Shown piece after piece: positions 3,005 through 55,520 of a DNA stretch of 64,000 bases; position 1 is the first letter of the stretch, and each line of letters opens with the position of its first letter. Location of the stretch: positions 48,337 through 112,336 of the forward strand of contig JAPOZO010000052.1 of the NCBI GenBank assembly GCA_026706025.1, written 5' to 3'. The notes under the pieces were generated by a model. The model had not been told where the DNA came from. It searched no databases and was given only the letters and a program-made list of their open reading frames with translations. Source of the DNA: Candidatus Poribacteria bacterium (GTDB taxonomy: Bacteria > Poribacteria > WGA-4E > WGA-3G). The position numbers and the translations under genes were made by a program.

Positions 3005-3207
3005 AAGAAACTGCGTGTTTTTCGTTTGGGACGTTATATTTAGAGAGGCTCACTCTTCATTTTGCTTTATTTTTTTTCTCAAAAATCACAATTGCGCTGG
3101 TTGAATCTCCAAAAGCTGCAGATGGTATAACAATCTCGCAGAGTCGCCAACCTTCGCTTCCTTCGCGATTAAGCGTCATTTCAAGGGCCGGAATTGATCG
3201 GGAAACA

Positions 3208-3240
3208 AACCCTAACCCTTTCTGTTTGAGGGTTAGGGTT
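3208..3240. terminator. Bidirectional hairpin between convergent genes
   Basis: AACCCTAACCCT-ttctgtttg-AGGGTTAGGGTT perfect 12-bp stem followed by TTGT. Lies between the + gene ending at 3004 and the - gene ending at 3292. Confidence 0.5.
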
Positions 3241-3291
3241 TTGTATTCGTATTTAACCATTCAATGCCTCGCTTTCTTGTTTTGTTAACCG

Positions 3292-3879
3292 TTATATGCC
3301 TTCTTGATTCACCACAAGTTCTGTCCATGCCTGATTAATCGCTGCTTGGACATGGTTAGTTTCCACAAACGGAATTCCTAACTTAAAACATTCCGCTTGG
3401 ATCTCACGACTTTCCTTCTGATACCGGATAATTAGATTCCCTAATTCATAGTCTGAGAGAGATGTTGTCCAATGATCTATTCGGGTATATGTCCGTATTT
3501 CAGTGATTTTTGCCTCAACATTGACATCCACGTAACCCAAAAACACGCACTTAAAGCCTTCTTTATGAAGAACAGAGGCGGTTTTGGGGGATATATGATA
3601 CCCTTCTATGACAAAATTCAAACCTTCATATTTTGTATGTCGTGCCAATGCTTGGGTAAATGTTGAAAGTTTTTCACAAACGATTCGCGGGTTTGACGTA
3701 AAATGCGTGATATCAAGTTGCGGGAACGCGTCGTGCATTGAAGAGACGATTGCGTCCAAAGGGAAAATTGACGCTCCAAGTTTGTCTCGCAACTTTTTTG
3801 AAAGGCTTGACTTTCCAGATTGGGGTACACCACCGATAATAAAACAACACTGGTTTATTGCAGACATACATTCTTCCAT
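3292..3879 (-). CDS. P-loop kinase-like protein (chloramphenicol-phosphotransferase-like/AAA fold)
   Basis: N-terminal Walker A motif IIGGVPQSGKSSL. Small size and overall pattern resemble CPT/zeta-toxin-like kinases. Low GC. Confidence 0.4.
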   Translation of the reverse strand: MEECMSAINQCCFIIGGVPQSGKSSLSKKLRDKLGASIFPLDAIVSSMHDAFPQLDITHFTSNPRIVCEKLSTFTQALARHTKYEGLNFVIEGYHISPKTASVLHKEGFKCVFLGYVDVNVEAKITEIRTYTRIDHWTTSLSDYELGNLIIRYQKESREIQAECFKLGIPFVETNHVQAAINQAWTELVVNQEGI

Positions 3880-50501: not shown

Positions 50502-51107
50502 ATGGCACACACATTACCAGCGCTCCCGTATGCGCACGATGCTTTGGAACCTCATATTGACGCACAAACCATGGAAATCCATCACGGCAAACACCATCAA
50601 GGCTACGTCAACAACCTTAACGCTGCCTTAGAAGGACTCGGTGATCTCGCCGATATGGATATTCACGAATTACTCAGTAATATTGACCAGGTTCCAGAAG
50701 ACAAGCGTCAGGCTGTCATCAACAACGGCGGTGGACACGCCAATCATTCACTTTTCTGGTCCATTATGAGCCCCAACGGTGGCGAACCCGGCGGCGAAAT
50801 CGCAGCAGCGATAAGTGGTGCTTTCGGGTCGCTTGAAGCGGCGAAAGAGCAGTTTGTGACTGCCGCGACTACACGTTTTGGCTCCGGTTGGGCATGGCTT
50901 GTGCTTGGTGATAGCGGCTTGGAAATCTACTCCACCGCAAATCAGGACAGCCCAATTATGGACGGACATACCCCGCTCCTCGGCATTGATGTCTGGGAAC
51001 ACGCATACTATCTGAAATATCAGAATCTGCGTCCAGCTTACGTTGAAGCGTGGACAAACGTCATCAATTGGACACGGGTTAACGAACTCTACGTGGCGAA
51101 TGCCTAA
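50502..51107 (+). CDS. sodA: Fe/Mn superoxide dismutase
   Basis: LPYAxDALEPHI, [15 protein letters not shown] signatures. Fe versus Mn type cannot be decided from sequence alone. Confidence 0.9.
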
Positions 51108-51223
51108 CTTGCCATAACAACTTTTGGGTGTCGTAGGGGTAGGCGCGAGCAGCGTTCAAACCTACCCTCTACTTCCCAAAGGACCTGCTATCTGTCGGAA
51201 TGGTCTACCAGATCAATTTTTCT

Positions 51224-51251
51224 TGACATCTCTCTTGAAATGTGTTATACT
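51224..51251 (+). promoter_or_regulatory. Sigma70-like promoter with extended -10 (TTGACA-16-TGtTATACT) driving the ilvB leader
   Basis: Consensus -35 at 51224-51229; TG-extended -10 at 51243-51251. Confidence 0.55.
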
Positions 51252-51339
51252 TAAAATACAAAAGATAATTCTTTTTAGCATACCCGTGAAACTTCATAAA
51301 ATGGTGTGCGTAATTAACATCTAAATAGTTACCCAAAAA

Positions 51340-51601
51340 GCGTTGAAGGGGAGGAGTAAGTCGCCCGGGCTTGCAAGAGATGGAGACTCATCGGCTGAAA
51401 GGTCTCCTCAAGTTACCACGACTGAAGGTCGCCCTGGAGCTGCTAATCTGAACACATATCAGTAGGATTAGTCGGTCCGATGCCCGTTATCGTATCCCAA
51501 AGAGTGCTCTTTCTCATAAGAGAAAGGGAATTGGAGTGGTACCACGGTAAGGTCAGTATTATGTCCTTCTCGTCTCCATGTTTGGAACGAGAAGGTTTTT
51601 T
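51340..51601 (+). promoter_or_regulatory. T-box riboswitch leader with intrinsic terminator, upstream of ilvB
   Basis: Stem I region with an AGAGA motif (51376-51380). T-box sequence AATTGGAGTGGTACCACGG (51529-51547) matches the consensus AATTAGGGTGGTACCGCGG at 15 of 19 positions. Terminator CCTTCTCGT...ACGAGAAGG + TTTTTT at 51565-51601, 55 nt before the ilvB ATG. Confidence 0.6.
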
Positions 51602-51654
51602 AATTTTAACGACTCCCGTAGGGACAATCCCTACTACTTATAAGGAAAATTGGC

Positions 51655-53331
51655 ATGGAACTTTCAGGAGCACAAATCCTGGTTGATGGTCTCAAGCGGG
51701 AAGGTGTCGAATATATCTTCGGTGTCAACGGTGGCGCAGCGATGCCGATTTTTGATGCCTTGTACGGCGAGACCGAAATCAAATTGATTCCGATGCGGCA
51801 TGAACAAGGGGCTTCCCACGCCGCTGATGGCTACGCACGCGCCACCGGGAAGGTCGGTGTTGCACTCGCAACCTCCGGTCCCGGCGCTACCAATCTCGTC
51901 ACCGGTATCGCTACTGCCTATATGGACTCCATTCCGATGGTCGCGATTACTGGTCAGGTTTTCACGCACTATATCGGCAGTGATGCTTTCCAAGAATGCG
52001 ATGTTATCGGCGTGACACGCCCGATCTGTAAGCACAGTTACCTCATTACAAGCAGTGACGAAATCGCAGATGTTGTCGCTGAAGCGTTTCACATCGCGAA
52101 AACAGGGAAACCGGGTCCTGTTATTATTGACATCGCCAAAGATGCGCAGATACATGAAGCCCTGTTTCAGTATCCAGAAACGGTTGACATCCGTAGCTAC
52201 AAACCTCAAGTTCATGGCGATCCGGTACAAATTGCCAAGGCGGCGGCACTGATAAAAGAAGCCAAACGCCCTATGCTTTATGCCGGCGGCGGTGTAGTCC
52301 TTGCGAATGCCAGCGAAGAACTACGGCAGCTGACCTTGAATACACAGATCCCGATTACCGTTACCTTGATGGGACTTGGCGCGTTCCCTGAGACGCATCC
52401 GTTAGCAATGGAGATGCCCGGCATGCACGGCTCCTGTTGCGCAAATTATGCCTTCACCGATTCAGACTTGGTTATCGCTATTGGTGCGAGATTTGACGAC
52501 CGCGTTACCGGGGATCTCAGTAAATTCGCACCTAACGCCAAGAAGATCCACATTGATATAGACGCGTCTTGTATTGGGAAAAACGTCCCTGTTGATGTCC
52601 CGATCGTTGGCGATGCGAAAAGCGTCCTGACGGAACTCAACAAACAGGTCGGTACAGCGGATATCGACCCGTGGCGCGCCCAGATTCAGGAGTGGAAGCA
52701 GAAATACCCATTTGAATACGATCAAAAATCGGATATAGTCATGCCGCAATTTGTTATTGAAAAAATATATGAGCATTACAGTGATGCCATCGTTGTTGCG
52801 GATGTCGGACAACACCAGATGTGGGCAGCGCAGTACTTCAAATTCACTGAACCTCGACAGTGGCTTAATTCTGGAGGGCTTGGCACGATGGGCTTTAGCC
52901 TACCCGCCGCAATCGGTGCGCAGCTCGGATGTCCAGACAAAACCGTCGTCAATATCAACGGGGACGGGTCCTATATCATGACGATCCAAGAACTGGTCCC
53001 AGCGGTTACCATGAAGCTGCCGCTTAAGGTCTTCATCATTAACAATATGTACCTCGGAATGGTACGCCAGTGGCAGGAATTGTTCCACGGCAAACGTTAT
53101 TCCGCTGTTGATTACCACGACAACCCTGATTTCGCCTTGCTCGCACAAGCGTTCGGTGCCACGGGCTTGCGGGTCGAACACCCTGAAGATGTCGAACCCG
53201 CATTACAGAAGGCAAAAGGGATTACCGACGGTCCTGTGGTCATTGACTTTATTGTTGATGAAGAAGAGAACGTGTTCCCGATGGTGCCAGCCGGTAAAGG
53301 GCTTGGAGATGTTATTCGCGGGTTATCTTAA
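51655..53331 (+). CDS. ilvB: Acetolactate synthase large subunit
   Basis: ThDP-enzyme blocks, including GDG(S/A)...NN region IINNMYLGMVRQWQ. Confidence 0.9.
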   Translation: MELSGAQILVDGLKREGVEYIFGVNGGAAMPIFDALYGETEIKLIPMRHEQGASHAADGYARATGKVGVALATSGPGATNLVTGIATAYMDSIPMVAITGQVFTHYIGSDAFQECDVIGVTRPICKHSYLITSSDEIADVVAEAFHIAKTGKPGPVIIDIAKDAQIHEALFQYPETVDIRSYKPQVHGDPVQIAKAAALIKEAKRPMLYAGGGVVLANASEELRQLTLNTQIPITVTLMGLGAFPETHPLAMEMPGMHGSCCANYAFTDSDLVIAIGARFDDRVTGDLSKFAPNAKKIHIDIDASCIGKNVPVDVPIVGDAKSVLTELNKQVGTADIDPWRAQIQEWKQKYPFEYDQKSDIVMPQFVIEKIYEHYSDAIVVADVGQHQMWAAQYFKFTEPRQWLNSGGLGTMGFSLPAAIGAQLGCPDKTVVNINGDGSYIMTIQELVPAVTMKLPLKVFIINNMYLGMVRQWQELFHGKRYSAVDYHDNPDFALLAQAFGATGLRVEHPEDVEPALQKAKGITDGPVVIDFIVDEEENVFPMVPAGKGLGDVIRGLS

Positions 53332-53340
53332 CGATTTTAA

Positions 53341-53500
53341 GGGTTGTCAGTTTTAAGAGTTATCAGTTTTCAGTTAAGACCCTGTGTCGAGAACATTTTC
53401 TGTCGCTGTCACAAGATACCTCTTTAACTGACGACTGATAACTATTCCCTCTGATAACTGACGACTGAAAGGGTTGCGTAGCAACCCGCACTGAAAACTA
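53341..53500. repeat. Family A heptad element copy 8 (intercistronic ilvB-ilvN)
   Basis: GGTTGTCAGTTTTAAGAGTTATCAGTTTTCAGTTAAGACC ... CTCTTTAACTGACGACTGATAACT ... CTGATAACTGACGACTGAAAG ... CACTGAAAACT. Ends 8 nt before the ilvN ATG. Confidence 0.85.
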
Positions 53501-53507
53501 TAAAAAA

Positions 53508-54008
53508 ATGAATTCAGAAGAACGACATATCTTTTCCGTTTTAGTCGAAAACCGATTCGGAGTCCTTGCACGCGTTGCGGGGCTCTTTAGCGGGCGCGGC
53601 TTTAATATCGACAGTCTCAACGTCGCTGAGACACATGACAAAAGCATCTCGCATATAACTCTTGTCACACACGGTGACGCGCAAATTATGGAACAGATCT
53701 ACCAGCATCTAAACAGACTCATCGACGTTATTGAGGTGACCGACCTTTCCGCTGCTGGAACGCATGTTGAGCGAGAACTTGTTCTTATTAAAATTGCTAC
53801 CGATGATCCTCAAAAACGCACCGAGATTCTACAAGTCGCGGAGGTTTTTCGTGGGCGGGTCATAGATATGAAGCCTGCCTCCCTTGTGCTTGAAATTACC
53901 GGTGATGAAGGTAAATTGAAAGCGGCAATTGATATTTTCAATACGTACGGTATCCTTGAGCTGACACGCACCGGCAAAATAGCGATGTTACGCGGCTCCG
54001 AGAAATAG
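53508..54008 (+). CDS. ilvN: Acetolactate synthase small (regulatory) subunit
   Basis: ACT-domain N-terminus LVENRFGVLARVAGLFSGRGFNIDSL typical of IlvH/IlvN. Confidence 0.85.
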   Translation: MNSEERHIFSVLVENRFGVLARVAGLFSGRGFNIDSLNVAETHDKSISHITLVTHGDAQIMEQIYQHLNRLIDVIEVTDLSAAGTHVERELVLIKIATDDPQKRTEILQVAEVFRGRVIDMKPASLVLEITGDEGKLKAAIDIFNTYGILELTRTGKIAMLRGSEK

Positions 54009-54011
54009 GAT

Positions 54012-54140
54012 ATGGTTGTCGGTACGTTCCGCTGCGCTCCACTTTCAGCTATAGGTTATCAGTTGAATGTGTGGCGGGTGAAAAGGTTTAACCTGCTACA
54101 AACGAGTTACTGACAACTGGCAACTGACAACTGATAACTT
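54012..54140. repeat. Family A heptad element copy 9 (intercistronic ilvN-ilvC)
   Basis: GGTTGTCGGT ... CAGCTATAGGTTATCAGTTG ... GTGAAAAGGTTTAACC ... GTTACTGACAACTGGCAACTGACAACTGATAACTT. Confidence 0.8.
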
Positions 54141-54157
54141 AAAAAGGAATAGACTTT

Positions 54158-55150
54158 ATGGCAACGATTTATTACGATAGTGATGCTAATTTTGACTTAC
54201 TGAAAGAGCGTACCGTCGCTGTTGTTGGCTATGGTGCGCAAGGACGTGCACAGTCGCTAAATCTCAAAGACAGCGGTGCAAACGTGATCGTCGCATTATA
54301 CGAAGGCAGCCGTTCAAAAGCCCGTGCAGAAGCGGAAGGTCTGACTGTCAAGAACGTTGAAGAAGCCGCAGCAATGGCAGACATCGTCCAAGTTCTCATA
54401 CCTGACGAACGCCACGCCGCTGTCTATCGCGACCAGATTGCCCCTAACATGGAAGCAGGCAATATGCTCCTCGTCTCACACGGGTTTAGCGTCCACTTTG
54501 GGCAGATTGTACCTGCCAGCGACATTGATGTCGCAATGATTGCGCCTAAGGGCCCCGGTTCCCTCGTTCGTGAAGTGTTTGAAGGCGGTGGTGGTGTGCC
54601 GTGCCTTATCGCCATCCATCAAGACACCACAGGTCTCGCGCGCGATGTCGCACTCGCTTATGCAAGAGGTATCGGCGGCACACGTGCTGGGGTCATTGAA
54701 ACGACGTTCCGCGAGGAGACCGAAACCGATCTCTTCGGTGAGCAAGCCGTGTTGTGTGGCGGAACCGCTGCCCTCATCAAAGCCGCCTTTGATACACTCG
54801 TTGAAGCCGGTTATCAACCGGAAATGGCTTATTTTGAATGCCTCCACGAGTTGAAATTGATTGTTGACCTGATCTATACGGGTGGGTTGAGCAAGATGCG
54901 GAACGATGTCAGCAACACCGCCGAATACGGTGATCTAACACGCGGTCCTCAACTCATTGACGATAGTGTCCGGGACAAGATGCGCCAAATCTTGAAAGAC
55001 GTTCAAGGCGGTGTCTTTGCACGTGAATGGGTTTTGGAAAATGAGGCGAACCAACCCGTGTTAGGCGCGCTCCGCCGACAAGAGGCGGAACTTGAGATCG
55101 AAGAAGTCGGAAAAAATCTCCGTAGCATGATGAGTTGGCTTGATGAATAG
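54158..55150 (+). CDS. ilvC: Ketol-acid reductoisomerase
   Basis: [21 protein letters not shown] Rossmann motif and the KARI C-terminal knotted domain. Confidence 0.95.
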
Positions 55151-55238
55151 CCGCTCCTTTCGGTAATTGTGGTAGGTGCGGTTTTGCGGTGTACCATAGG
55201 TGTCAATTTAGTAGATTTTCAGTGGTTTTCTCTTGAAG

Positions 55239-55490
55239 TCCCGTAGGTTGGGTTGAACGGCGTTGAGAAGTGGACTGTTGACAGGTCAAACACCCCTGAA
55301 AGTCAATATCCGACCACATCTATTCGTGAACGTAGTGAAACCCAACTTTACGCTGTCAGCCCCGCGGAACCTTCAAATCAAAAGCGTTGGGTTTCACTCG
55401 GTCTCTGATGGGTGTGGTGTATCTGGAACAAGTTGTGTTTTCTATGATTTTCGGGTTTTTAGTGGCATCCGTTCAACCCAACCTACGGGA
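55239..55490. mobile_element. MITE-like 252-bp element with 22-bp perfect terminal inverted repeats and a nested 13-bp inverted repeat
   Basis: Terminal inverted repeats TCCCGTAGGTTGGGTTGAACGG (55239-55260) and CCGTTCAACCCAACCTACGGGA (55469-55490). Inner repeats AGTGAAACCCAAC (55334-55346) and GTTGGGTTTCACT (55386-55398). No transposase gene and no clear target-site duplication. Confidence 0.5.
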
Positions 55491-55520
55491 CGATACTTGG
55501 GTATTTCTGCGGATTTCTTC

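Follow-up and report, generated by a model that had tools for sequence, protein, structure and literature searches.

The locus studied here raises the question of how the branched-chain amino acid genes ilvBNC are controlled in Candidatus Poribacteria, and which tRNA their leader would sense. An earlier note, made from the letters alone, had proposed a T-box riboswitch with a terminator/antiterminator switch in front of these genes. We followed this up in the window, by which we mean the whole 64-kb stretch of DNA that was analysed, and in related loci (labelled L001 and so on); the promoter, the leader elements and the genes ilvB, ilvN and ilvC lie on the forward (+) strand. We are highly confident that the leader is a canonical full-length transcriptional T-box in which uncharged tRNA-Val would switch ilvBNC on. 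The mechanism and the family are textbook, and the host phylum is the sole unusual point.

The T-box leader upstream of ilvB

We found that the T-box family RF00230 matches positions 51334-51580 at 113.7 bits (E 2.2e-24), covering model positions 1-219 of 219 and exceeding the curated gathering score of 93 bits, and that it is the only Rfam family at threshold in the whole 64-kb window. This is the covariance scan by which the T-box call was to be checked, and the call stands. Downstream, ilvB (acetolactate synthase large subunit, 51655-53331; TIGR00118, 794 bits, cut-off 538), ilvN (acetolactate synthase small subunit, 53508-54008; NF008864, 208 bits, cut-off 119) and ilvC (ketol-acid reductoisomerase, 54158-55150; NF004017, 533 bits, cut-off 336) are followed by a GNAT acetyltransferase and then an FG-GAP protein, with no leu genes after ilvC in the window. 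A Mn/Fe superoxide dismutase gene (sodA) lies upstream of the T-box.

The Rfam alignment lays out the anatomy of the RNA from 5' to 3'. Stem I (51340-51440) comprises a basal K-turn (UGAA 51344-47 with GGA 51436-38), a specifier loop with the S-turn strand AGUA at 51355-58 and the 3' side GAAGGUCG at 51424-31, the latter including GAA at 51424-26, an AG bulge, and a distal loop, GGCUGAAAG, at 51388-51400. The AG bulge is the AGAGA motif (51376-80) that had already been noticed in the Stem I region, and all of these motifs (UGAA/GGA, AGUA, GAA, AGAGA and the distal loop) align to the RF00230 consensus. Stem II (51442-51472) carries a GAA/AGUA S-turn and is followed by the Stem IIA/B region (51473-51496), for which the alignment predicts a pseudoknot: IIA would pair CGG (51473-75) with CCG (51484-86) and IIB GAUGC (51479-83) with GUAUC (51492-96), and the F-box CCGUUA occupies 51484-89. 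Stem III (51507-51528) precedes the T-box sequence and antiterminator (51529-51578), which were placed by alignment and folding. The T-box sequence AATTGGAGTGGTACCACGG at 51529-47 agrees with the Rfam consensus AAaUaGGGUGGUACCGCGa at 15/19 positions, as originally counted, and 15/19 is likewise the count for the antiterminator-forming T-box sequence written as AAUUGGAGUGGUACCACGG.

Within the antiterminator, UGGAG (51532-36) pairs with CUCCA (51574-78) and ACGG (51544-47) with UCGU (51570-73), leaving a 7-nt bulge, UGGUACC (51537-43), that is invariant in all relatives. Folded alone, the antiterminator reaches -14.1 kcal/mol, and its minimum-energy fold leaves exactly UGGUACC unpaired. The intrinsic terminator (51565-51601) consists of CCTTCTCGT (51565-73), a 13-nt interval (N13), ACGAGAAGG (51587-95) and T6, which gives U6 in the RNA, at 51596-51601; TCCA/TGGA pairing within the N13 adds to the stem, which thereby reaches 13 bp with a single bulged C and is capped by a UGUU loop. 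The hairpin has a folding energy of -19.0 kcal/mol (z -5.6; 0/200 shuffles as stable), and a simple terminator scan missed it only because that scan allows loops of at most 8 nt. The ilvB ATG (51655) follows 54 nt after its end, so the factor-independent terminator described before ilvB is indeed present, at 54 nt instead of 55. The antiterminator 3' strand (51569-51578) overlaps the terminator 5' strand (51565-51578), and the minimum-energy structure of the 77-nt region that includes the terminator is the terminator itself. Since both helices use 51569-51578, only one of them can form at a time, at -14.1 kcal/mol for the antiterminator versus -19.0 kcal/mol for the terminator, and the switch is 'off' by default. 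An equivalent hairpin followed by U5-7 is found in all 10 leaders compared, at -18.7 to -44 kcal/mol. The Rfam match, the helix overlap and the scores of ilvB, ilvN and ilvC above their NCBIfam cut-offs thus uphold a T-box switch over ilvBNC.

Upstream of the leader we identified a sigma-70-type promoter (51223-51251) with a -35 element TTGACA at 51223-28, a 17-nt spacer, TG at 51243-44 and TATACT at 51246-51. In a promoter scan, TTGACA-17-TGtTATACT matches at 11/12 positions and has the TG extension. The promoter elements are those of the earlier note, whose element coordinates are correct to within 1 nt, but its 16-nt spacer had been counted up to the TG. TTGACA-17/18-TATACT also precedes the T-box in L001, L084, L087, L088, L089 and L090 (7/10 leaders with the window), and the promoter region of L083 is rearranged. 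We infer a transcription start at about 51258, by analogy with the established T-box mechanism. The promoter-like sequence TTAGCA-16-TAAAAT further downstream (51275-51302) is degraded in L001, which makes it an improbable main promoter.

Between this start and Stem I lies a 5' leader extension (51258-51339) with predicted small hairpins, for example GCAUACC...GGUGUGC at 51278-51309, and a folding energy of -16.1 kcal/mol (z -3.5). The distance from the end of the -10 hexamer to the Rfam match is 83 nt in the window, 88 nt in L001 and 15-34 nt in L087-L090. The extension is partly kept in L001, where its hairpin is preserved through five transitions, and in L083, where it stands in a different register. 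Given this register, the insertion of about 500 nt that splits the extension in L084, and its absence from L087-L090, we rejected it as a part of the riboswitch. On the aligned leaders, it is a lineage-specific extension whose predicted hairpins are not consistently conserved. The roughly 340-nt leader that the earlier note drew is driven from this promoter, but some 80 nt of it (51258-51339) lie outside the riboswitch. Just 3' of sodA, at 51121-51182, a further hairpin, GTAGGGGTAGG...CCTACCCTCTAC, without a U-tract (-32.5 kcal/mol for 51100-51200), has a core conserved in L001 and L083 and may mark the end of the sodA transcript or act as an insulator before the ilv promoter.

The leader also contains an ATG-initiated ORF of 68 codons (51480-51686) that crosses the terminator. 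This could speak for ribosome-mediated attenuation instead of tRNA-dependent antitermination, and Corynebacterium is known to control ilvBNC by leader-peptide attenuation (PMC10272879, PMC11857589). However, relatives cut the ORF to 3-47 aa and its Val, Leu and Ile codons form no run, so it does not resemble the conserved short ORF of a leader-peptide attenuator, which is rich in codons for the regulating amino acid and overlaps alternative hairpins; the judgement that it is incidental was correct. Sequestration of the ribosome-binding site would be another way of replacing antitermination, and translational T-boxes exist in Actinobacteria. Against this, about 40 nt separate the terminator from the downstream ilvB ribosome-binding site (AAGGAAAA, 51642-49), which is unpaired with it, every relative has a U-tract terminator, and Stem I is full length, unlike in the actinobacterial translational type. 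We therefore give attenuation through this ORF or ribosome-binding-site sequestration a negligible probability, and retain tRNA-dependent antitermination.

Conservation among related loci

The window IlvB shares 96% identity with the protein of L001, a MAG that carries the label Candidatus Poribacteria bacterium and was the sole Poribacteria genome returned when genome contigs were scanned with IlvB. The next-best genomes reach at most 56% identity and are taxonomically mixed, and these matches are therefore uninformative on horizontal transfer. The exact IlvB protein occurs on an ENA metagenome scaffold, and public data hold many IlvB proteins at 77-98% identity, several of them NCBI-labelled as Poribacteria. 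The T-box had been read as a clue to a Firmicutes-like lineage; this was misleading, as the host is Candidatus Poribacteria.

We compared ten leaders, namely the window, L001 and eight further loci with IlvB 77-94% identical. A T-box with a full-model match lies upstream of ilvB in 10/10 of these Poribacteria-type loci, at 75.8-113.7 bits (75.8-110.9 bits for the eight and L001), with the order ilvB-ilvN-ilvC in all eight further loci and sodA upstream in most of them. Throughout the Poribacteria clade, down to about 60% IlvB identity, the order sodA / T-box / ilvBNC is conserved. Scanning metagenomes with the clade T-box core returned 30 loci, most of them again in the ilvB arrangement and often with sodA; their specifiers are GUC in 23 and AUC in 2 (L095, L096). 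Beyond the ten loci, the element precedes ilvB in about 25 more metagenome contigs. One metagenome match, L093, was discarded as a chance match in GC-rich coding DNA.

The ten-leader alignment contains 64 consensus pairs, of which 95.6% of cells pair. Changes on both sides affect 24/64 pairs, compared with 9.2 +/- 2.0 in column shuffles (0/500 reach 24) and with 2-9 pairs in a control with slid partners. Stem I helices 1-5 are 91-100% paired, each with 2-3 pairs changed on both sides, and the corresponding counts are 6/8 pairs in Stem II, 4/7 in Stem III and 1/5 in Stem IIB (helix 7), which is 96% paired. Covariation across these leaders supports every stem.

Where relatives have insertions (9-60 nt), these lie in the Stem II, Stem III or terminator loop, and the Stem III loop varies in size in L001, L084, L085 and L087; the riboswitch seems to tolerate loop insertions. 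L001 (about 3760-3785) and L084 share a Stem II loop insertion of about 23-30 nt (GTAGGAGCGATCTCCGAATCGCG) that is absent from the window, and L084 has an additional 33-nt insertion in the Stem III loop. A second regulator in the long T-box-ilvB gaps of L085, L088 and L090 was considered and rejected, since the terminator-loop (L085, L090) and downstream sequences look like unrelated insertions. Additionally, L094 (about 2590-2680) and the identical L105 contain the 3' half of a T-box alone (T-box sequence, antiterminator, terminator and U8) in front of a 153-aa ORF without an NCBIfam match. These two loci have no Rfam match and no recognisable Stem I, and they may represent a decayed or recombined T-box remnant.

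The operon spacers of the window differ from those of its relatives: ilvB-ilvN and ilvN-ilvC are separated by 177 nt and 149 nt, whereas in relatives the genes overlap or lie 21-125 nt apart. Heptamer-like repeats, AACTGAC / AACTGAT, form inverted arms at 53343-53473 and 54052-54141 (e.g. AACTGACGACTGATAACT) and may constitute a small repeat family in the operon spacers. The spacer between ilvC and the GNAT gene is 490 nt long and contains, at 55238-55491, 208 nt bounded by perfect terminal inverted repeats of 23 nt (GTCCCGTAGGTTGGGTTGAACGG / CCGTTCAACCCAACCTACGGGAC), which looks like a MITE-type insertion; the same spacing in L083 is just 57 nt.

The specifier codon and the amino acid probably sensed

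By the usual rule, one counts from the 3' end of the specifier loop, takes bases 2-4 as the T-box codon and expects a purine after it (the '+0' frame of TBDB; PMC7778990). Applied to GAAGGUCG at 51424-31, this rule gives the codon GUC (Val) at 51428-51430 and then G51431, a reading in line with the Rfam alignment and the relatives. The purine is G here and not the commoner A. GUC-G is kept in 33/35 related leaders with a readable specifier loop and AUC (Ile) is present in 2/35, while the base preceding the codon varies among relatives between G, C and U (GAA-N-GUC-G). The model positions that hold GUC in the window hold CUC in the ilvB T-boxes of Paenibacillus, Armatimonadota and Limnochordales, AUC in those of Atribacteria, and GUC in those of Bacillus benzoevorans.

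Further support comes from a T-box directly upstream of valS in L099 (10967-11241 of SDBU01007907.1), which scores 103 bits and has an identical GAAG-GUC-G loop; in Stem I it hardly differs from L111, an ilvB T-box of the same metagenome, and the nearest named relative of the L099 ValS is from Poribacteria. A GUC T-box in front of valS constitutes independent support for the valine reading, and by its sequence the element is probably a paralogue of the ilvB T-box. No valS T-box was found in three loci of related lineages (L121-L123), two of which have intergenic gaps that are too short; L121 is labelled Poribacteria and belongs to the same study series as the window. With one locus having the element and three being without it, we rejected a valS T-box as general in the clade; the valS copy is thus lineage-specific, and the support from valS comes from a single lineage.

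Two other readings of the specifier were weighed against valine. The specifier had been sought near CTGAAAGGTCTCCTC (51395-51409), a stretch that contains CUC, and a leucine reading could also appeal to the CUC of the B. subtilis and Paenibacillus ilvB T-boxes. This stretch, however, is aligned to the Stem I distal loop and the 3' strand of the distal helix, outside the specifier loop, and therefore is not the specifier; CUC in that role is excluded by GUC at 51428-51430. Glycine could be read from GGU at 51427-29, but L086-L090 and many of the metagenome copies have C or U in place of the first G, with GUC-G constant, and we rejected this codon as well. The UGGU of the T-box bulge implies a discriminator base A73, which fits tRNA-Val, tRNA-Ile and tRNA-Leu and does not suit bacterial tRNA-Gly, which has U73. 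Moreover, the same specifier loop precedes valS, which counts against leucine and glycine alike, and taken together we hold either of them to be very improbable.

The second reading is a dual or relaxed specificity, in which the leader would sense both tRNA-Val and tRNA-Ile, or different ones by lineage, and report general branched-chain starvation. The ilvBNC operon is shared by the pathways to Val, Leu and Ile, UGGU suits A73 of all three tRNAs, and in L095 and L096 (IlvB 79% identical) AUC stands in a T-box that is otherwise intact at 104 bits. Alternative specifier frames have also been discussed (PMC7778990). In the window, however, the canonical frame holds GUC only, as do 33/35 of the readable leaders, and to read GUC the tRNA-Ile anticodon GAU would have to accept a G·U mismatch in the first codon position, whereas T-boxes generally demand Watson-Crick codon pairing (PMC7778990). 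Dual Val/Ile sensing is unsupported for the window copy, and we judge the whole reading to be very improbable. The window and 10 related loci contained no tRNA gene, and hence no tRNA-Val(GAC) gene with A73.

Across the clade, specificity appears evolutionarily labile, because two relatives carry AUC in place of GUC. These are L095 (6439-6695) and L096 from metagenome JYMV01, which have an orthologous sodA / T-box / ilvB arrangement with AUC and an unchanged UGGU, and they look like a natural one-base specificity switch, one transition away from GUC. L100, a third contig of the same metagenome, retains GUC.

Returning to valine, tRNA binding and the direction of regulation can be drawn from the established T-box mechanism. 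Transcription from the promoter at 51223-51251 would begin at about 51258, and by default the nascent leader would fold the terminator (51565-51601), stopping RNA polymerase before ilvB. Under valine shortage, tRNA-Val (anticodon GAC) in its uncharged form would dock on Stem I, its anticodon pairing with the specifier GUC at 51428-30 and its elbow stacking on the platform of the AG bulge and distal loop. The free 3' end, A73-C-C-A, would then pair with UGGU (51537-40) in the T-box bulge and stabilise the weaker antiterminator (51532-51578), consuming the terminator 5' strand, so that ilvB, ilvN and ilvC would be transcribed. Charged tRNA-Val would not make the acceptor-end contact, and termination would win. 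A valine specifier fits ilvBNC, and it fits valS in L099.

Known systems, distribution and meaning

The closest textbook parallel is the ilv-leu operon (ilvBNC-leuABCD) of Bacillus subtilis, which also has an RF00230 transcriptional T-box before ilvB, with the complete set of Stems I, II, IIA/B and III and with an antiterminator that competes with the terminator. It differs in having leuABCD, whereas the operon here ends at ilvC, and in its Bacillota host as opposed to Poribacteria; inputs from CodY, TnrA or CcpA are not expected in the Poribacteria host. Its specifier, CUC (tRNA-Leu), contrasts with the GUC (Val) of the window and was reportedly described by Marta et al. in 1996. The reading of tRNA-Leu through CUC is also given in PMC12452182. 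Bacillus benzoevorans (L065) is nearer in codon, with GUC at the same model positions before ilvB, but its host is a Firmicute, it has two tandem copies (3042-3652), both GUC, and it shows A after the codon in place of G and an S-turn GCA/GA in place of GAA. The tandem Val T-boxes of this species stand against a single Leu T-box in the related B. subtilis operon. T-box leaders of valS belong to the same family and sense the same amino-acid class, and that of L099 shares the GGAGUGGUACC core, although the target is a tRNA ligase and not a biosynthetic operon. The commonest Val specifier in TBDB is GUA (0.61), whereas the Poribacteria clade uses GUC. In Corynebacterium, the same operon has a leader with a terminator, but control there is ribosome-mediated, through a leader peptide/uORF (PMC10272879, PMC11857589), and involves neither a T-box nor a tRNA-binding RNA; this mechanism does not apply to the window.

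In Bacillales and Clostridia, ilvB is a classical target of T-box control (PMC2494555). In surveys, more than 95% of full-length transcriptional T-boxes are found in Firmicutes, with horizontal transfer proposed for the rest, and the surveyed hosts are Firmicutes, Actinobacteria, Chloroflexi, Deinococcus-Thermus and a few delta-proteobacteria (PMC2494555; bioRxiv 10.1101/2020.06.17.157016). In the indexed literature we found no report of a T-box in Poribacteria, and automated Rfam-based annotation of MAGs may already flag such elements. What is new is an ilvBNC T-box specific for valine that is conserved across a clade of Poribacteria, and with it full-length transcriptional T-boxes are documented in one more phylum. 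The finding matters for annotation and evolution, and it carries the caution that a T-box is an unreliable marker of Firmicutes.

A broader interpretation would be that T-box sensing is a vertically kept system of the whole phylum Poribacteria, outside the Firmicutes/Actinobacteria/Chloroflexi/Deinococcus-Thermus group, the presumed place of origin of T-boxes, fixed at sodA-ilvBNC to about 60% IlvB identity, with its specifier changed from GUC to AUC in some lineages and with a duplicate placed at valS in another. We regard this as a serious yet still somewhat doubtful possibility. If phylum-wide vertical inheritance were true, T-boxes would either be of older origin than assumed or have been acquired horizontally in ancient times and then stably inherited, and a near-consensus T-box from a non-Terrabacterial lineage would become available for mechanistic comparison. 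Poribacteria are an uncultured phylum, known almost solely from metagenomes. By sequence, tRNA-Val charging can be assigned as the probable signal for their branched-chain synthesis, which offers a testable handle on their physiology, and the Val-to-Ile specifier switch and the valS paralogue illustrate cleanly, on a small scale, the evolution of T-box specificity and targets.

Outside the classical Firmicutes, ilvB T-boxes are also present in Armatimonadota (L009, L012), Limnochordales (L011) and Atribacteria (L061). They differ from the Poribacteria copies in reading CUC (Leu) or AUC (Ile) and in scoring 47-85 bits, below the gathering score, compared with 76-114 bits. Those at L009 3684-3932 and L012 3667-3943 (Armatimonadota, CUC) and at L061 3139-3548 (Atribacteria, AUC) score 54-85 bits, and since this is below the gathering score of 93, default annotation would miss them.
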